From Clostridia bacterium (GTDB lineage: Bacteria > Bacillota > Clostridia > Oscillospirales > CAG-272): a stretch of DNA of 64,000 nucleotides. Below the pieces are notes generated by a model. It worked only from the letters and a program-made list of their open reading frames with translations. It ran no database searches and was not told the origin of the DNA. Of this stretch, positions 16,770-51,076 are shown piece by piece. The stretch's first letter is position 1, and every line of letters begins with the position of its first letter. A program made the position numbers and the translations under genes. The stretch is taken from positions 6,412 through 70,411 of the forward strand of contig JAFTYE010000004.1 of NCBI GenBank assembly GCA_017464805.1, written 5' to 3'.

Positions 16770-16970
16770 AAAAAAAGTTGAACCGAAGCTCAACTTAATA
16801 CAAACAGTAGCATTTTATCATACAAAACGTAAAATGCTTTCTGTCCTTTTACTTGAGAGATTAGATCTCGCGACCCTTGCCCCTTCAGTACTCAATCCGG
16901 TTGAGATTCTCCAGAACGCCGTCCACGCACAGTCCCCTTTCGGTTTCAGCACGCTTCACCCGGCCATATT
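16770..16970 (-). promoter_or_regulatory. Glycine riboswitch leader: one full aptamer, a degenerate upstream partner and terminator hairpins
   Basis: Minus strand reads CTGGAGAA...ACTGAAGGGGCAA...CTCTCAAGTAAAAGGACAG (16916-16841), matching the glycine aptamer core. An upstream remnant reads ACCGAAAGGGGAC...GGAC (16966-16915). Downstream hairpins lie at 16838-16809 and 16797-16778, the latter followed by T7. Confidence 0.8.
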
Positions 16971-35170: not shown

Positions 35171-35486
35171 CGGTTGTTCCTTTCCGTTTCTGCGCGGTCG
35201 GGAGCAAGAAATAAAAAAGCCCCTCTTACGCAACAGCATCCTACTTTGCATAAAAGAGACGAAGATTATTCTCCGCGGTACCACTCTTTGTTGGTGAAAT
35301 AACTCACCCACTCGATCCCATCCACCAATGGGAATTCTCTGTAACGGGAGAACCCGTCCGAATCTACCGGGCACGCGCCCCTCGGTCGGCGACTCAGGGA
35401 TGAGATATGTTCACATAGCATACCGCCTCACAGCAACCGACGGCTCTCTGAAATGCGCAGTGAATTTGCTTCCCTTCGCAGTCTTT
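35171..35486 (-). promoter_or_regulatory. T-box riboswitch leader, probable Leu (CUC) specifier
   Basis: The minus strand shows an AGAGAG box, a GGUUGCUGUGA distal-loop region and a specifier loop ...GUGAACAUAU-CUC-A immediately 5' of the UCCC helix strand (CUC at 35404-35402). T-box sequence AGAGTGGTACCGCGGAG lies at 35287-35271. Terminator GUCUCUUUUAUGC/GCGUAAGAGGGGC plus U6 lies at 35260-35212. Confidence 0.85.
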
Positions 35487-35492
35487 TTCGTT

Positions 35493-45701: not shown

Positions 45702-45944
45702 TCAGACACGCTTAAAGCCAAGCGTGTGTAACAAGTCCGCTGTGTCGGTCAAATCGCACAGGCGAATCAGATCGTCCACGGTCAGCTCGTCCGCGCAGTC
45801 CGCGCAGAAATACCGTCCGTTTCCGTAAAATGCCTCGCCGTCCTCGATCGGCTCGTCACAGATCTCGCAGACGGCCGTGTCGCGCCCGTCCCATCGCTCG
45901 GGACAGGCAGACGGACAAAGGGCAAGGGAACAATTCTGACACAT
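45702..45944 (-). CDS. Small (80 aa) cysteine-rich protein with zinc-ribbon-like CxxC pairs; function unknown
   Basis: MCQNCSLALCPSACPERW...CEICDEPIEDGEAFYGNGRYFCADCADELTVDDL... SD GAAAGGAAAG before the ATG at 45944. The track start at 46076 lies inside the -35 box of its own promoter. Confidence 0.6.
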   Translation of the reverse strand: MCQNCSLALCPSACPERWDGRDTAVCEICDEPIEDGEAFYGNGRYFCADCADELTVDDLIRLCDLTDTADLLHTLGFKRV

Positions 45945-46116: not shown

Positions 46117-48051
46117 ATGATCGTATTAAGTGCCACAGGGCTTTCGCTCTCCTTTGGGGATACGCCCGTTTTACGTGACGTGTCCTTTTCGGTAAACGAG
46201 GGGGATCGTCTCGGCATCATCGGCGTCAACGGCGCGGGCAAAACGACCCTGCTTCGCCTGATCACGGGCGAGGCAGAGCCGTCGGAGGGCTCGGTCTTTT
46301 TGTCGCGCGATAAGAGCGTGGGCGTTCTCTATCAGAACACGGCCGAAATGGCACTGAAAGGAGAAGAAACACTCCTTGACCACATGATCTCCGCCTTTCC
46401 CGAGCTTCTTGCGCAGGAGGAGGAGATCACCGCGCGCGAGACGGAGCTTTCCCGCTTGTCCGAGGCAGGGGACGAGGCCGCGGCCATCCGCGTGGGGGCT
46501 GCGCTTGAGGAGGCGCACCGCCGCTATGCCGCGGGCGGGGGGCTTGAATTCCGCGGCCGATGCCGCGCCATGCTGCTTCGCATGGGTTTTACGGAAAGTG
46601 AGCTGTCGCTTCCCGTGTCCGCCCTTTCGGGCGGTCAGAACACGCGCCTCGCGCTCTCGCGGCTCCTCTGCCGTGAGCCGGATATCCTTATGCTCGATGA
46701 GCCGACCAACCACCTGGATATTGCCGCGCTCACTTGGTTAGAGGACTTTCTCGTGTCCTATCCCAAAACGGTGCTGCTCATCTCGCACGACCGTTATTTC
46801 CTTGACCGTGTGACCACGAAGACCCTGCACATCGAGCATACCCGCGCGCGCCTGTATCCCGGCAACTATACCAAGGCAAAGCAGCTGCGCGAGGAAGAAA
46901 ATGCCTCGACCGAAAAACGATACAAGCAGCAGCAAAAGGACATCGCCAAAATCGAGGCGAACATCGCCTTCCAACGCCGTTGCGGACAGGAACATAACTT
47001 CGTCACCATCCGCGCCAAGCAAAAGCAGCTTGACCGCATGGAAAAGGTGGAGCTCGCCCCGCCATCCCCGAAGGACATTCGTCTTTCCTTTCGCGAAAGC
47101 GAACTGCCATCGGGCAACGATGTGTTGACGGCGAAGGCACTCTCCTTCTCGTTCGGCGAAAAGCCGCTGATCGAGGGAATGGACTTTCTCATCCGCCGCG
47201 GTGAGCGTGTTTTGTTCCTCGGGCAGAACGGTTGCGGAAAATCTACTCTGATGAAGCTACTGGTCGGGCGGCTCTCGCCGCGCTCCGGCAGGCTGGACAC
47301 GGGTGCGAATGTCAAGATCGGCTACTATGACCAGGAAAACGATACTCTGGATGAACGAAACACCGTTTTTTCCGAGCTCCGCGAAACCTATCCGCATAAG
47401 ACCGATTTCGAGCTTCGCTCGGCACTTGCACTTTTTTTGTTCGGTGCAGAGGAAATGGTCAAGCCCGTGTCGGTGTTAAGCGGCGGAGAGCGTGCCCGCC
47501 TTACCCTTGCCAAGCTGGTGCTCACCGAGATCAACCTGTTGGTTCTGGACGAGCCGACCAACCACCTGGACATCGGCTCACGCGAGGTGCTGGAGGAGGC
47601 CATCCTCGGCTTTGGAGGTACGGTGGTGGCCGTGTCGCACGACCGTTACTTCATCAACCGCGTGGCCACGCGCCTTGTGGAGCTTGACCCCGCCGTGCCG
47701 CATGGCTGCCGCGATTATCCGCTCTCCGAGGGAGAGGATGGCTATGCCTGTTACCGCCGCATGCGCGAGGAACGAGAAGCCGCCGCGACCGCCGAGAAGA
47801 AGGCCACCCCCGTCTCCGAGGGCAAGCTACTCTACGAGCAGGCCAAGCGCGAGAATGCCGAGCGTCGCTCGCAGGAGCGTCGCCGCTCCGCCGCAGAGAA
47901 GAAGATCCCCCTTCTCGAAGTGGAGCTGGAGGAGCTGCAAAAGGAGCTGTTCGGCTCTGCCGCGACGAACTACGTCCGTGCCGCCGAGATCGAGGCACGC
48001 CGCGCCGAGATCGAAGAGGAGCTGCTCTCGCTCTATGAGCTGACCATGTGA
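46117..48051 (+). CDS. ABC-F family ATPase (two ABC domains, no TM domain, charged coiled-coil C-terminal extension)
   Basis: Two Walker A motifs (GVNGAGKTT, GQNGCGKST), two LSGG signatures, and an EERE/RRSQERRR-rich tail. Confidence 0.9.
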   Translation: MIVLSATGLSLSFGDTPVLRDVSFSVNEGDRLGIIGVNGAGKTTLLRLITGEAEPSEGSVFLSRDKSVGVLYQNTAEMALKGEETLLDHMISAFPELLAQEEEITARETELSRLSEAGDEAAAIRVGAALEEAHRRYAAGGGLEFRGRCRAMLLRMGFTESELSLPVSALSGGQNTRLALSRLLCREPDILMLDEPTNHLDIAALTWLEDFLVSYPKTVLLISHDRYFLDRVTTKTLHIEHTRARLYPGNYTKAKQLREEENASTEKRYKQQQKDIAKIEANIAFQRRCGQEHNFVTIRAKQKQLDRMEKVELAPPSPKDIRLSFRESELPSGNDVLTAKALSFSFGEKPLIEGMDFLIRRGERVLFLGQNGCGKSTLMKLLVGRLSPRSGRLDTGANVKIGYYDQENDTLDERNTVFSELRETYPHKTDFELRSALALFLFGAEEMVKPVSVLSGGERARLTLAKLVLTEINLLVLDEPTNHLDIGSREVLEEAILGFGGTVVAVSHDRYFINRVATRLVELDPAVPHGCRDYPLSEGEDGYACYRRMREEREAAATAEKKATPVSEGKLLYEQAKRENAERRSQERRRSAAEKKIPLLEVELEELQKELFGSAATNYVRAAEIEARRAEIEEELLSLYELTM

Positions 48052-48137
48052 GGCCATATAGAAAGGAAGGAAAAGCACCCTTCCTTTCGTTTTATGCTTG
48101 CGCGAAAAAATTTTTCGAAAAAATTTTGGAAAAACTA

Positions 48138-48166
48138 TTGACAAAACAGGATCCGTCTGCTATACT
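48138..48166 (+). promoter_or_regulatory. Consensus sigma-A promoter with no CDS downstream
   Basis: TTGACA (48138-48143), 17-nt spacer, TATACT (48161-48166). Confidence 0.7.
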
Positions 48167-48172
48167 GTTAGT

Positions 48173-48935
48173 ACAAGAGATACAAAAATCTTGAAAGCGA
48201 GGTACTAAAAATGGTCAAAATCACCAAGTACAGTACTCCGCGGTGTATGCGCTGACCTTTCGAAAGGTCCCCGCTAATGAAAGTGAACAAGGCGCATAGA
48301 CCGCGAAAAAGAAGGAAGTCGGTTTGTGTGCCTTTTTTGATCGCAAAATATGCAAGCCTATCCGTCCCTGCGTGTGTAGAGGAAAGAAGGAACAGAAGGA
48401 ATACGCACGAGTCCCGCGTCACCGTCGGTGACCGATACGCAAGGGCGGCAGTCCATCTCAGGGGAGATGAGGGTTGTTCCGCGCAAATCCAAAAAGGAGG
48501 ACACTCCCATGTACACGTGAGTGCCGCACAAGACCCCAAATCAAACCGGAGGTCAGTCCAATGAACAGTGAGAAATTTCACTAAACCTTTATAATAGAAT
48601 ACACAAAGAAAGAAGGGGTCGCTAAGAAAATTCTTGCTTCTTACCGCTTTGTCCGTCGGTGGCTGCCACCTAATGGCTGATGCCGAAAGGCAAACAACAA
48701 GCAACGCTTTTAAGCAATAGTCTGACGATTCCGAACGTTCTGAATTCAGGAAATTGAGGTATAGTCCAATGGCATAAGAAGACGGTCGTAACCCAAACAA
48801 GTAAGAAAGGAGGGCAAAAAACCTAATGAAGCCCCAAACTTTCCGTACGCGAAACGGTTACAAAACCACCGCCATCTCCGTGCTCATGGAATGGGTATAA
48901 CGCCGAAGAACACTTCGGCGTTATTTTTTTGTCTT
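48173..48935 (+). ncRNA. Candidate large (about 760 nt) highly structured non-coding RNA; family unassigned
   Basis: Bounded by the promoter above and a strong terminator. No credible ORF. GC is visibly lower than in flanking CDS. Nested long-range helices, a GNRA hairpin and purine-rich loops are described in the findings. Confidence 0.6.
48899..48935 (+). terminator. Intrinsic terminator closing the non-coding unit
   Basis: AACGCCGAAG-AACA-CTTCGGCGTT followed by ATTTTTTTGTCTTTTTT. Confidence 0.85.
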
Positions 48936-49006
48936 TTTTGCCCGAGATCCCGCCACGCTCCGCGTGGCGCCGCTTTGCGGTTCGACTGCGGCCGCTGACA
49001 CCGAAG

Positions 49007-49093
49007 GTGTCATTCTGAGCGCGGCGCAGCGAAGTCGAACCCGCAGGGCGATGCGGAGCATCGGAATTCGGCGGCCTACGCTCGGGATGACAC
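49007..49093 (+). repeat. 87-nt imperfect inverted repeat (REP-like long hairpin) whose mismatches are G-U pairs only on the + strand
   Basis: GTGTCATTCTGAGCG (49007-49021) pairs with CGCTCGGGATGACAC (49079-49093): 15 pairs, two of them T-G. Confidence 0.5.
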
Positions 49094-49146
49094 GGGTGCA
49101 GACGCGGTCGGTTTCTGCAAGAAACGTAAGCCCCCTCCCGAGGGGG

Positions 49147-49181
49147 GCTAAAAACCACCCTTGGTCACGACCAAGGGTGGT
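49147..49181 (-). terminator. Intrinsic terminator of mnmG
   Basis: ACCACCCTTGGTC-GTG-ACCAAGGGTGGT followed by TTTT on the minus strand. A second hairpin GCCCCCTC/GGGGGGGC lies at 49130-49148. Confidence 0.85.
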
Positions 49182-49186
49182 TAGTT

Positions 49187-51076
49187 TTATTCTCTCCCAT
49201 ACCGCTCTTTCAGATAAATCAGCAGGACGGTGATGTCGGCGGGGTTGACGCCGCTGATGCGGGCGGCCTGGCCGACATTCAGGGGACGGATGGCCGCCAG
49301 CTTCTCGGCCGCCTCGATGCGAAGCCCTTTCAGGGACAGGTAATCGATGTCGGCGGGGAGCTTCTTGCTTTCGAGCTTCGCCGTGCGCTCGGCTTCTGCC
49401 TTTTCACGGTGGATATAGCCCTCGTATTTCACCTGCACCTCAACCGTCGTGCGGACGGCACGGGGCAGGTCGGGGCGGCTCCGGTCGATTGCGGCAAGAG
49501 AAGCATAGCTGACCTCGGGGCGGCGGAGAAGCTCCGCGAGGTGCACGCCGGTGGTGAGCGGGGTCGAGCCAAGCGAGGTGAGCAGGGCATTGACCTGCTC
49601 CGAGGGCGGCACGGTTGCCTTTTCCAGGCGCGCGATCTCGTCCTCAATCTGTTTCCGTTTCTCACAGAAAGCGGCATAACGCTCGGAGGAAAGAAGCCCC
49701 ACACGGTGGCCGACATCCGACAGGCGCAGGTCGGCGTTGTCCTGTCGGAGAAGAAGCCTGTATTCGGAGCGCGAGGTCATCATGCGGTAGGGCTCATCCG
49801 TGCCCTTGGTGACCAGATCGTCGATCAGCGTGCCGATGTACGAGGACGAGCGTGACAGGATCATCGGCTCCTCGCCTTTTTCGGCCAGCGCGGCGTTGAT
49901 GCCGGCGACAAGCCCCTGTGCGGCGGCCTCCTCGTAGCCCGAGGTGCCGTTGAACTGCCCTGCGCCGTAAAGCCCCTCGATATCCTTGAAGGCGAGGGTG
50001 GGGTAGAGCGAGAGTGGGTCGATGCAATCGTATTCGATGGCGTAGCCGTAGCGCATGATCTCGGCGCGCTCAAAGCCGGGCAGCGAACGGATCATCTCGT
50101 GCTGTACGTCCGCGGGCATGGAAGTCGAGAAGCCGCTGATGTACATTTCCTCGCTTGCCGTGCCCGTTGGCTCCACGAAAAGCTGATGTCGTTCCTTGTC
50201 TGCAAAGCGCACGATCTTGGTTTCGATCGAGGGGCAGTAGCGCGGGCCTGTGCCCGTGATGTTGCCCGAATACATGGCACTGCGGTCAAGGTTGCTTCGG
50301 ATGATATCGTGGGTATTTTTGTTCGTGTACACGATATGGCAGGAGATCTGTTCGCGCTTGCCGAACTCCTTCTCGTCCGTGCGGACGGAGAAGGGAACGG
50401 TGTTCTCCTCGCCGCGCTGCTCCTCCAGTACCGACAGATCGATCGAACGGCGCGAAACGCGCGCAGGCGTTCCCGTCTTGAAGCGCATCATCTTCACGCC
50501 CGCCGCGGCAAGCGAGGCCGACAGGGCGTTTGCGGGAAGCATCCCGTCAGGGCCAGAGGGCGCAACGTAAGATCCGATGAACACAGCACCAGAAAGATAC
50601 GTGCCCGTGGCAAGGATCACGCGGGAGGCGCGCCACTCCTCGCCAAGGGCGGTGCGAACGCCGCACACGCGGCGGCCGTTTTCGGCATCCTCGAATAAAA
50701 TGTCGGTGATCTCCGTCTGCACAAGACGCAGATTCGGCTCGTGCTCGATCGTTTCCTTCATGAGCTGACGGTAAAGCATGCGGTCGGCCTGCACGCGGCG
50801 CGCATGCACCGCCGCGCCCTTGCCGAGATTCAGCGTGCGGGATTGCAGGGTCACGCGGTCGGTAGCATAGCCCATCTCGCCGCCCAGTGCGTCGATCTCA
50901 TAGACCAGATGCCCTTTTCCGCTTCCCCCGATGGAGGGGTTGCAGGGCATGTTGGCAATAGCGTCCAGCGATAGGGTAAAGAGAACGGTCGGCACACCCA
51001 TGCGCGAGGCGGCCAAGGCGGCCTCAACGCCCGCATGACCCGCGCCGATAACGGCGATCTTGGTGGAAAGCTCCAT
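49187..51076 (-). CDS. mnmG: tRNA uridine-5-carboxymethylaminomethyl(34) synthesis enzyme MnmG (GidA)
   Basis: FAD motif VIGAGHAGVEAA, NPSIGGSGKGHLVYEIDALGG, 629 aa. Confidence 0.95.
   Translation of the reverse strand: MELSTKIAVIGAGHAGVEAALAASRMGVPTVLFTLSLDAIANMPCNPSIGGSGKGHLVYEIDALGGEMGYATDRVTLQSRTLNLGKGAAVHARRVQADRMLYRQLMKETIEHEPNLRLVQTEITDILFEDAENGRRVCGVRTALGEEWRASRVILATGTYLSGAVFIGSYVAPSGPDGMLPANALSASLAAAGVKMMRFKTGTPARVSRRSIDLSVLEEQRGEENTVPFSVRTDEKEFGKREQISCHIVYTNKNTHDIIRSNLDRSAMYSGNITGTGPRYCPSIETKIVRFADKERHQLFVEPTGTASEEMYISGFSTSMPADVQHEMIRSLPGFERAEIMRYGYAIEYDCIDPLSLYPTLAFKDIEGLYGAGQFNGTSGYEEAAAQGLVAGINAALAEKGEEPMILSRSSSYIGTLIDDLVTKGTDEPYRMMTSRSEYRLLLRQDNADLRLSDVGHRVGLLSSERYAAFCEKRKQIEDEIARLEKATVPPSEQVNALLTSLGSTPLTTGVHLAELLRRPEVSYASLAAIDRSRPDLPRAVRTTVEVQVKYEGYIHREKAEAERTAKLESKKLPADIDYLSLKGLRIEAAEKLAAIRPLNVGQAARISGVNPADITVLLIYLKERYGRE

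Follow-up and report, generated by a model that had tools for sequence, protein, structure and literature searches.

The window analysed here is a stretch of 64,000 nucleotides from an uncultured Clostridia bacterium, in which an ABC-F gene and mnmG are separated by a gap that gene callers either leave blank or, in relatives, cover with a spurious 188-residue minus-strand ORF. Predictions from the sequence support an independently transcribed unit of approximately 760 nt (about 48173-48931) on the plus strand of this gap. A terminator at 48061-48097 (plus strand), identified by terminator scan, divides the ABC-F gene from the unit; in L086, one of the related loci described below, its stem has another sequence and the hairpin is preserved. 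The promoter region (48103-48166, plus strand) comprises UP-element-like phased A/T tracts (48103-48137) with a tandem 13-nt A/T repeat, a -35 element TTGACA (48138-43) and a -10 element TATACT (48161-66), the 17-nt spacer ending in TGC. We recovered in this way the sigma-A-type promoter that the first-pass annotation had placed at 48138-48166, with a TG extension and an 11/12 match, and transcription is predicted to start at about 48173 (plus strand). The -35, -10 and TG elements and the length of the spacer are unchanged in all six loci compared, and the sequence of the spacer drifts. The unit is closed, as had been proposed, by a final terminator, T2 (48897-48931, plus strand; stem-loop at 48897-48924), in which a 4-nt loop caps a 12-bp stem and seven U's (U7) follow; its stem is unchanged in 6/6 loci and its loop varies. 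The interior has a GC content of 0.40-0.53, versus 0.60-0.66 in the flanks, and the plus strand holds no conserved frame of at least 30 amino acids, both in agreement with the earlier description of a GC-poor region devoid of long ORFs.

Both strands of the unit fold better than shuffled sequences (z = -4.2 for the plus and -6.3 for the minus strand), so that the two cannot be told apart by folding energy alone. Both U runs and all of the Shine-Dalgarno (SD)-ATG sites described below are found on the plus strand only, and no promoter-like site was identified on the minus strand within 47800-49400. We rejected a minus-strand ORF of 210/228 residues: in L091, which is 90% identical at the nucleotide level, it is broken into fragments of 97, 70 and 63 residues, and its homologues are set apart by single-base indels.

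We identified the unit in five other species-level relatives (L091, L086, L087-89, L092 and L093), each time immediately 3' of the same ABC-F gene, so that the conservation outside the source genome that was anticipated for it is borne out. The comparison set thus consists of six loci, the window included, in two subclades. Within the close subclade, nucleotide identities to the window are 0.90/0.83/0.84 for the unit, versus 0.81/0.83/0.83 for the ABC-F gene; by this measure, the conservation of the unit equals or exceeds that of its neighbour, and it includes long blocks that are 100% identical among species whose ABC-F genes diverge by 17-19%. More distant ABC-F relatives at 70-77% identity (L090, L096-98, L100 and L101) have different genes directly 3', restricting the unit to the two subclades. 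The best ABC-F matches among GTDB species representatives had only approximately 60% identity, and neither synteny nor nucleotide similarity to the gap, and an nhmmer search with the element across all 101 fetched loci recovered the syntenic copies alone. We found no match to the unit by BLASTN against phages and plasmids, nor in JGI metagenomes, which were searched with the aligned peptides and with a DNA pattern of two blocks, and viral contigs yielded a single 21-nt match (L099) in otherwise unrelated sequence. In the sequences searched, the unit is seen solely among uncultured Clostridia of a single narrow lineage.

Similarity between loci stops directly after the T2 U run. The DNA between T2 and mnmG is variable among relatives; that of L086 and L087 contains HTH genes of the XRE type. 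This variation could point to an insertion hot spot on the mnmG side, and to the unit being what remains of former genes or of a mobile element in decay, with its SD-ATG sites as relics of gene starts; the 21-nt block shared with the phage contig, which is there the start of an ordinary phage gene, would fit the same idea. We consider this highly improbable, and largely refuted by the conservation of the unit at or above the level of a neighbouring housekeeping gene, by compensatory changes in its helices and by starts and stops that are maintained rather than eroded. The variable DNA, moreover, begins only past T2, and the phage and plasmid collections gave no match.

At the 5' end of the unit, we identified an arrangement typical of attenuators: an SD-led short ORF that overlaps a switch region, and an antiterminator and a terminator that share an arm, with a U run after the terminator. 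The leader ORF, sORF1 (48211-48255, plus strand), has a GAGGT motif 7 nt before its ATG and encodes MVKITKYSTPRCMR followed by a stop; its start and SD are present in 6/6 loci, and its length in the outer subclade is 28-30 codons. The N-terminus M-x-[KR]-I-T-K-[YF] is conserved, with only third-position synonymous changes in codons 4-6 between the subclades, and in every one of the six loci exactly 28 nt separate the ATG from the 5' arm of the antiterminator. The antiterminator (48239-48305, plus strand), identified as an inverted repeat, by folding and by pairing across loci, has 14-nt arms (48239-52 and 48292-305) that are 93% complementary; it is 95.2% paired across the six loci, versus 19-56% in slid controls, with double changes in two pairs (U-A to C-G, and C-G to U-A). 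The attenuator terminator, T1 (48289-48338, plus strand), has a stem of 48289-304 with 48318-334 and a U6 run (48333-38). It is 97.9% paired, versus 21-59% in slid controls, is followed by five to seven U's in every locus, and takes its 5' arm from the antiterminator, making the two helices mutually exclusive. Folding further predicts a helix, P1 (48197-206 with 48231-241, plus strand; -13.7 kcal/mol), that would pair the SD of sORF1 to its codons 7-10 and whose 3' arm shares 3 nt with the antiterminator; L092 and L093 have at this position an SD/AUG-masking helix of unlike sequence. Across all loci, the folding energies are -10 to -14 kcal/mol for P1, -27 to -34 for the antiterminator and -22.6 to -25 for T1.

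The helices CGCGGT/ACCGCG and TATGCGC/GCGCATA, noted before, are therefore real, but the multi-way junction they were thought to form represents one of the two states in a switch between terminator and antiterminator, and the hairpin that they enclose (48254-69) is present but confined to the subclade of the window. A further 5' hairpin, CAAGA/UCUUG, was discarded, being absent from L091 and L087. The stop codon of sORF1 lies past the antiterminator arm in the subclade of the window, whereas in the outer subclade it falls on the arm of the terminator, implying that uninterrupted translation would have opposite effects in the two. We found in the sORF1 leader neither a run of regulatory codons nor a known stalling motif. 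Its x-[KR]-I-T-K-[YF] segment is loosely compatible with the chloramphenicol context rule of a penultimate Ala, Ser or Thr (bioRxiv 10.1101/2021.06.17.448903), through the Thr penultimate to Lys6, as very many peptides would be.

Downstream of T1, we identified two structured core domains. In domain B (48362-48469, plus strand), recognised by covariance model and by pair changes on both sides, two stacked closing helices (48362-67/48443-48 and 48369-75/48435-41) are followed by a purine-rich internal region and by hairpins at 48415-23/48427-34 and 48454-59/48464-69. The covariance model aligned the entire domain in L092 (23.4 bits, E = 0.008), the domain is 99.3% paired, and both sides have changed in 10 of its 27 pairs; shuffled sequences gave 3.0 +/- 1.3 such pairs (0/500 reaching ten) and slid controls 0-2. 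As there are only six loci in two subclades, covariation in the unit leans mostly on one or two divergent sequences, which were aligned with models fitted to the proposed structure. Three helices paired by eye in the first-pass annotation (CCGTCC..GCG/CGC..GGGCGG, GTCAC/GTGAC and CATCTC/GAGATG) all have compensatory changes. A fourth, the CGTGTG/CGCACG hairpin (48371-48409), did not hold, with three G-U pairs and a mismatch in L086/L087; the register that covaries there is the longer UGCGUGU/AUACGCA.

Domain D (48613-48692, plus strand) consists of a GAAG.GGU/ACC.GCUU helix, a GGUGG/CCACC hairpin and a tetraloop hairpin (48681-92). Its covariance model aligned L093 with 44.5 bits and L092 with 15.7 bits, and it is 90.5% paired; support is moderate, since just two pairs have changed on both sides. 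The stem of the tetraloop hairpin, first described as TGCC-GAAA-GGCA, covaries, and its loop alternates between GAAA, UUCG and CUCG. In 5/6 loci, the GGTGG/CCACC hairpin keeps its stem unchanged while its loop varies, but changes in the 5' arm break two pairs in L091, and the proposed GTGA...TCAC hairpin (48568-81) is present in the subclade of the window only. A long-range pairing of 48463-78 with 48864-79 was rejected, being lost in L092. The unit nevertheless contains conserved secondary structure supported by covariation, as is general among large structured RNAs.

The distal part of the unit additionally contains very short frames with canonical translation signals. Mini-ORF2 (48496-48520, plus strand) reads ATG TAC ACG TGA, 8 nt after a GGAGG that could form a small hairpin (GGAG-GACA-CUCC); it encodes MYT or MYR and a stop in 6/6 loci, the stop being retained through a TGA/TAA swap. 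Mini-ORF3 (48548-48584, plus strand), with GGAGG, 8 nt, ATG and seven codons in total, is a member of a repeated module GGAGG-N3-GTCCAATG, of which L092 has an additional copy encoding MNN and a stop. The SD and ATG of mini-ORF3 are present in 6/6 loci, followed by seven codons in five loci, among which the peptide differs, and by two codons in L092. In mini-ORF4 (48756-48777, plus strand; GAGGT, 8 nt, ATG GCA TAA), none of the six loci deviates from the block GAGGTA..GTCCAATGGCATA, and the stop TAA is replaced by TAG in L087. In total, and besides sORF5 described below, four SD-ATG sites with 7-9 nt spacing are conserved in 6/6 loci, versus 0.044 expected (0/5000 shuffles reaching four), and the stops of the conserved frames survive TGA/TAA/TAG changes in every locus. 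The most strongly conserved short blocks of the unit are SD-ATG sites at canonical spacing, suggesting ribosomes as its partner.

The frames of two to seven codons might themselves be effectors rather than regulators, acting on translation once the attenuator is read through, by peptidyl-tRNA drop-off or ribosome titration in analogy to the bar minigenes of phage lambda. The conservation of SD, ATG and stop but not of the encoded peptides, the repetition of the GGAGG-N3 module and its additional copy in L092, and a strong promoter followed by a leader of translation-sensing type are consistent with this. We nonetheless give it little probability, since it leaves unexplained domain B and the purifying selection on the 24-residue peptide encoded by sORF5; the last sense codons are neither consistently rare nor common to the loci.

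The last frame, sORF5 (48803-48900, plus strand; ATG at 48826, stop TAA at 48898-900), has an extended SD, AGAAAGGAGGG, and 24 codons encoding MKPQTFRTRNGYKTTAISVLMEWV; its stop codon falls within the 5' arm of T2. Substitutions at the three codon positions, counted as minima, number 4/3/15 (P about 9e-4); variation is purely synonymous in nine codons and 19/24 residues are invariant, a pattern by which sORF5 is under purifying selection and evolves as a protein gene. The peptide is mostly polar and basic, with only approximately 9 apolar residues, and had no match by tblastn against plasmids, nor in PDB, Pfam or NCBIfam. The SD of sORF5 pairs with codons 2-7 of its own frame, in masking helices that are 100% and 95.8% paired and include one C-G to U-A double change. 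The sORF5 domain as a whole is 93% paired, versus 30-46% for slid controls, and a further predicted pairing joins mini-ORF4 to the 3' codons of the frame. Changes on both sides of a pair are no more numerous here than in slid controls, the helices lying in invariant or coding sequence, and we regard structure in this domain (domain E) as moderately supported by the alignment, along with that in domain D.

These frames bear directly on the first-pass interpretation of the unit as a large non-coding RNA. Its denial of any credible CDS in the gap fails where short frames are concerned, given sORF5 and the four further SD-ATG sites, and codon-periodic substitution is the very observation that it had named in advance as contradicting a non-coding unit. 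What stands of that interpretation is an independent, conserved plus-strand unit with covarying helices, and what falls is its freedom from ORFs and its likeness to OLE, ROOL and GOLLD. A purely non-coding RNA of that type, with short frames arising as accidents of purine-rich sequence, would agree with the size of approximately 760 nt, with folding better than shuffled sequences, with the covarying helices and with the lack of a long conserved ORF. It is quite improbable in view of the synonymous and codon-periodic changes in sORF5, of conserved SD-ATG sites with preserved stops far beyond chance expectation, and of the large-RNA models of Rfam, which remain unmatched even at E <=10.

We propose, with a probability of about one half, that the unit is a regulated, highly structured mRNA for a conserved 24-residue protein, possibly with a second function at the RNA level. 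By default, P1 and T1 would form, and most transcripts would stop at approximately 48338. A ribosome held within the first ~7 codons of sORF1 would open P1 and release the antiterminator arm, allowing RNA polymerase to read on into the distal 590 nt. A candidate signal for such stalling is a translation inhibitor or another translation stress. In the full-length RNA, sORF5 would be shut in a long hairpin, closed by the pairing of the mini-ORF4 start region with the 3' codons of sORF5 and of the sORF5 SD with codons 2-7. Ribosomes on the mini-ORFs, above all on mini-ORF4, would melt this closure and turn on synthesis of the peptide, by a putative translational coupling. Counting against the model, the sORF1 leader lacks a run of regulatory codons, and its stop is placed differently relative to the switch in the two subclades.

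Regulation of a 24-codon gene should require far less than a leader of 650 nt that includes a covarying three-way junction, and this excess hints at an RNA function outside the structured-mRNA model. The functional product might accordingly be domains B and D and the invariant GUCCAAUG blocks, as a protein-binding or base-pairing regulatory RNA that carries the peptide as secondary cargo, as RNAIII does delta-haemolysin. We view this as a tentative possibility, to which the strong covariation of domain B, the long identical blocks maintained despite divergence of the ABC-F genes, a UP-element-type promoter of the strength usual for abundant RNAs and a T2 stem that is invariant, unlike those of ordinary terminators, lend weight. 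Against it, there is no identifiable partner or target and no Rfam relative, GGA motifs are not enriched, and the best conserved short blocks point to ribosomes; it is in any case compatible with, rather than exclusive of, a structured mRNA. We also entertain, as an unlikely option, a translation-stress device of an undescribed type, in which a nascent-peptide-sensing attenuator releases an abundant RNA that acts back on the ribosome. Its start-stop minigenes, structured core and 24-residue basic peptide might be the products, titrating initiating ribosomes or particular tRNAs, or the peptide might bind the translation machinery. Were this true, it would be no accident that the unit always directly follows the gene of a housekeeping translation factor of the ABC-F type.

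A gap that looks free of ORFs can therefore conceal a composite unit, here made up of a putative switch that senses ribosomes, an RNA domain with covariation and a gene below the length recognised by gene callers. Should the structured-mRNA model be true, the unit would bring to light a family of small proteins that is new, a leader-peptide attenuator that unusually governs an RNA rather than an enzyme gene, and natural, conserved minigenes of two to seven codons, the biological use of which is poorly understood. The generality of these conclusions is limited by the confinement of the unit to one lineage of uncultured gut Clostridia.

Finally, we compared the unit with known systems. Searches of Rfam with 48000-49250 and with the L092 homologue gave no family match at gathering score or at E <=10, the output consisting of chance terminator-like and A/T-tract matches only, in keeping with the first-pass annotation, which saw in it no hallmark of RNase P, tmRNA, SRP, 6S, T-box or group II domain V. 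Its suggested placement with OLE, ROOL and GOLLD found no covariance-model match, HEARO and raiA likewise gave none, and size is the sole likeness to that class specifically. These RNAs resemble the unit in being large and intergenic with several conserved helices, and differ in that the unit has translated-looking frames and is found in one narrow lineage. It presumably also lacks their usual gene associations. Large non-coding RNAs generally have no conserved reading frames, whereas the unit has the codon-periodic sORF5 and five conserved SD-start sites, that of sORF5 included.

With the CsrB/RsmZ sponges the unit shares a purine-rich composition and repeated G-rich motifs, but its repeated motif is a full SD with an ATG at ribosomal spacing. 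The approximately eleven GGA motifs emphasised at first are not an enrichment (11 observed versus 12.5 in shuffles), and those of the large purine loop of domain B are lost in L086/L087; we rejected a CsrA-sponge reading on these grounds. The bar minigenes of phage lambda, in which a strong SD and an ATG are followed by just 1-2 sense codons and a stop, and which inhibit translation by peptidyl-tRNA drop-off, are matched, in form only, by mini-ORF4 (MA-stop) and mini-ORF2 (MYT-stop) in 6/6 loci. The hok/mok-type systems are structurally locked small-ORF mRNAs that encode a hydrophobic membrane toxin. The unit has a locally masked SD, a long-range closing helix and an upstream short frame for the putative coupling in common with them, and differs in that its peptide is not a hydrophobic membrane toxin and no antisense promoter or RNA was found; the hydrophobic toxin and overlapping antisense gene that characterise type I toxin-antitoxin systems are thus both missing from it.

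RNAIII/hld, SR1/SR1P and SgrS/SgrT are dual-function RNAs encoding peptides of approximately 25-45 residues. They are alike to the unit in their strong promoter, terminator end, several hundred structured nucleotides and small peptide; the unit differs in having its sORF at the 3' end, several mini-ORFs and no sequence or Rfam relation to them. A translated small ORF inside a structured RNA, one mark of this class, is recognised in the unit by evolutionary signature only.

Leader-peptide attenuators are found in the trp/his type of leader and, in drug-inducible form, before the erm, cat and ABC-F resistance genes of Firmicutes. The sORF1 leader may resemble that of cat-86, for which a literature search yielded no leader sequence to compare. 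The unit differs from these systems in what lies downstream of the switch: in place of an enzyme or resistance gene, it has a structured RNA of 590 nt that carries the mini-ORFs and a gene of 24 codons. It is like them in its SD-led short ORF, its alternative helices with a common arm, its U run and its fixed distance between start and switch, and, as in nascent-peptide arrest leaders, it is the N-terminal peptide rather than a run of codons that is conserved.

The unit lies between an ABC-F gene (46117-48051, + strand) and mnmG (49187-51076, - strand), and its predicted transcript of ~760 nt (~48173-48931) would be read from the + strand. Both ends recognised in the first-pass annotation were upheld. 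The promoter (48138-48166, +; TTGACA and TATACT, separated by a 17-nt spacer whose last bases are TGC) matches the consensus at 11 of 12 positions, with the -35 box, -10 box, TG and spacer length invariant among the six loci compared and the spacer sequence differing; the final terminator, T2, is canonical (hairpin 48897-48924, then T7). The low GC content noted for the gap was also confirmed (0.40-0.53; flanking genes, 0.60-0.66), and its + strand is A-rich. Compared with dinucleotide shuffles, both the predicted transcript (z = -4.2) and its complement (z = -6.3) fold better, so that folding energy alone cannot choose the strand. Rfam searches of the gap returned nothing at the gathering score, and at E <= 10 only terminator-like or A/T-tract chance matches.

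Among GTDB species representatives, ABC-F proteins were at most ~60% identical, without synteny and without similarity to the gap. Closer ABC-F homologues were taken as a ladder from a protein search and their contigs (L0xx) fetched. We identified the unit directly 3' of ABC-F in a close subclade (L091, L086 and L087-89; ABC-F proteins 88-90% identical to that of the window) and in an outer subclade (L092 and L093; 78%), and not at this position in L090, L096-98, L100 and L101 (70-77%). Within the close subclade, identity to the window is 0.90/0.83/0.84 for the unit and 0.81/0.83/0.83 for the ABC-F coding sequence, indicating, at the sequence level, that the unit is conserved as much as this coding sequence or more. 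In the outer subclade, conserved islands are interspersed with unalignable stretches. Similarity between loci stops right after the U run of T2, and the DNA beyond differs among relatives and includes XRE-type HTH genes. No copy of the unit was found in the phage, plasmid, viral-contig and JGI metagenome collections searched, and that it is the relic of a mobile element seems very improbable. Just upstream of ABC-F, an 80-residue ORF without a Pfam match (45702-45944, -) is called in most fetched relatives, among them L090, L093, L095, L098 and L101, and including several without the RNA unit.

Among the short frames is sORF5 (48826-48900, +), whose 24 codons encode MKPQTFRTRNGYKTTAISVLMEWV behind an extended Shine-Dalgarno sequence, AGAAAGGAGGG. 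All six loci retain it, and 19 of its 24 residues never vary among them; minimum substitutions at the three codon positions number 4, 3 and 15 (chance of at least 15 of 22 changes at third positions, ~9e-4), and nine codons vary synonymously only. The peptide has no relative in Pfam, NCBIfam or PDB. The unit had been proposed as an ORF-free, purely non-coding RNA, and codon-periodic substitution was the outcome named in that proposal as refuting it; we consider this reading improbable. The absence of credible coding sequence did hold for ORFs of at least 30 codons, none of which survives comparison with relatives, and did not hold for short frames. A long minus-strand frame across the unit was rejected as a gene, with neither frame nor length conserved. 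Public gene calls place a minus-strand protein of 180-188 residues over the unit (L087:6380-6946, 188 residues; L088:5492-6052; L089:3950-4492, -), most likely false calls favoured by the purine-rich + strand.

Four more sites carry GGAGG or GAGGT 7-9 nt before an ATG (shuffle mean 0.044; 0/5000 shuffles reach four), and all were found in 6/6 loci. The short frames are sORF1 (48211-48255, +; 14 codons in the window, 28-30 in the outer subclade), mini-ORF2 (48509-20, +; MYT or MYR, then stop), mini-ORF3 (48561-84, +; 7 codons, 2 in L092) and mini-ORF4 (48769-77, +; MA, then stop). Their starts are conserved and their stops are retained across TGA/TAA/TAG changes, while the mini-ORF3 peptides are not conserved; the module GGAGG-N3-GTCCAATG has an extra copy in L092. 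That the minigenes themselves are the effectors is unlikely, if marginally less so than a purely non-coding RNA. GGA triplets, of which roughly eleven were noted earlier, are not enriched (11 observed, 12.5 expected). A promoter-like site lies inside mini-ORF3 (GTGAGA-16-TATAAT, 10/12 match, 48568-48595, +); its -10 box is retained within the window's subclade, with TACAAT in L086, reads GATAAT in L092 and is missing from L093. A viral contig (L099:4541-4561) shares an exact 21-nt block, GAGGTATAGTCCAATGGCATA, for which ~0.3 chance matches are expected on a rough estimate; there, in unrelated DNA, an ordinary small Cys-rich gene uses the block as its ribosome-binding site and start.

The 5' end of the unit is, on sequence comparison and modelled folding, an attenuator. 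The first helices reported there (48239-52 with 48292-305) proved real and form an antiterminator whose 3' arm doubles as the 5' arm of an attenuator terminator, T1 (48289-304 with 48318-334, then U6). In the window, the predicted P1 helix masking the sORF1 Shine-Dalgarno folds at -13.7 kcal/mol, the antiterminator at -34.0 and T1 at about -23, so that P1 and T1 together roughly balance the antiterminator. All three are present with similar energies in 6/6 loci, and the leader ATG always lies exactly 28 nt upstream of the antiterminator arm. In the six-locus alignment, pairing reaches 97.9% for T1 and 95.2% for the antiterminator (slid controls, 19-59%); where the shared arm goes from AGACC to AAGCC, the antiterminator arm follows with GGUGU to GGCUU, and the U-rich terminator arm tolerates the change. 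Between the subclades, conservation is lost in the stretch separating the two antiterminator arms, which favours a ribosome-dependent switch over a ligand pocket. The first seven sORF1 residues, M-x-[KR]-I-T-K-[YF], are conserved, with only synonymous third-position differences between subclades in codons 4-6. The sORF1 stop is placed inconsistently: in the window's subclade it comes after the antiterminator arm, in L092 and L093 it falls on the terminator arm. Chloramphenicol-induced arrest follows a context rule (bioRxiv 10.1101/2021.06.17.448903), which the leader Thr penultimate to Lys6 fits; as the rule is permissive, this match is a lead only.

A covariance model for 48358-48476, built from four close sequences with helices read from sequence, aligned L092 over its full length (23.4 bits, E = 0.008). 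In domain B (48362-48469), 99.3% of alignment cells pair and 10 of 27 pairs are altered on both sides (shuffles 3.0 +/- 1.3, 0/500 reaching this; slid controls 0-2). A CGTGTG/CGCACG hairpin drawn earlier found no support here, and a longer closing helix did. Support for the modelled structure of domain D (48613-48692) is weaker, with 90.5% pairing and two pairs altered on both sides; its proposed GNRA hairpin (48681-92) has a covarying stem and a loop that swaps between GAAA, UUCG and CUCG. Domain B, by its size and its covariation, suggests the main rival explanation, that the RNA has a function of its own, which we hold to be possible if doubtful.

The sORF5 domain (48764-48897; RNAalifold consensus model) is 93.1% paired, against 30-46% in slid controls. 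In the model its Shine-Dalgarno, SD5, is masked by pairing with codons 2-7 in two helices (100% and 95.8% paired), where one C-G pair is replaced by U-A in each of the two outer loci. The helix that closes the modelled domain joins the mini-ORF4 start region to the final codons of sORF5. The alignments used for these domains are fitted to the models and include one or two divergent sequences, and in L093 a shifted 5' arm was chosen by the model.

The DNA between T2 and mnmG differs among close relatives (L086:6830-7830; L087:6840-8450), holding two short, divergently oriented XRE-type HTH genes in L086, and an HTH gene and a 228-residue ORF without a Pfam match in L087; by sequence, this flank resembles the insertion hot spots found at tRNA and tmRNA gene ends. 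GC-rich nested inverted repeats at 48946-49100 in the window (e.g. 49007-36 with 49064-93, 48979-90 with 49030-41; including GTCATTCTGAGCG...CGAAGTCGAACC) occur there in one copy, are ~83% identical in L086 and are missing from L087, L091 and L092; placed between T2 and the mnmG terminator, they resemble a small insertion or a repeat element. A perfect 14-bp hairpin at the mnmG 3' end (49153-49182), with T-rich sequence on either side, is kept in L086, L087, L088 and L091 even where the T2-side DNA differs, and may be a bidirectional terminator. Two independent Logan contigs (L083, L084) both end in the T2 hairpin loop (window 48909), where the perfect 12-bp palindrome probably broke the assembly. 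Elsewhere in the window, a T-box leader (102.7 bits, 35252-35488, -) and a glycine riboswitch aptamer (57.6 bits, 16831-16924, -) score above the Rfam gathering threshold.

The reading that best fits the sequences and modelled structures is that the unit would be a small-protein mRNA that is regulated and structurally locked. Its strong promoter would drive the leader, and the position of the ribosome on sORF1 would choose between T1 and read-through. Further downstream, the RNA would hold the gene for a peptide, its ribosome-binding site very strong yet masked, and ribosomes on the upstream short frames, mini-ORF4 above all, would be placed to open the sORF5 lock; we infer both this coupling step and the stalling signal. 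The unit matches no Rfam family and, carrying reading frames, falls outside the class of large ornate non-coding RNAs. It is unusual in its composite architecture and conserved natural minigenes, within a narrow phylogenetic range. In outline it is similar to RNAIII and other dual-function RNAs, and in its predicted workings to both leader-peptide attenuators and locked small-ORF mRNAs, the two being joined here in one.
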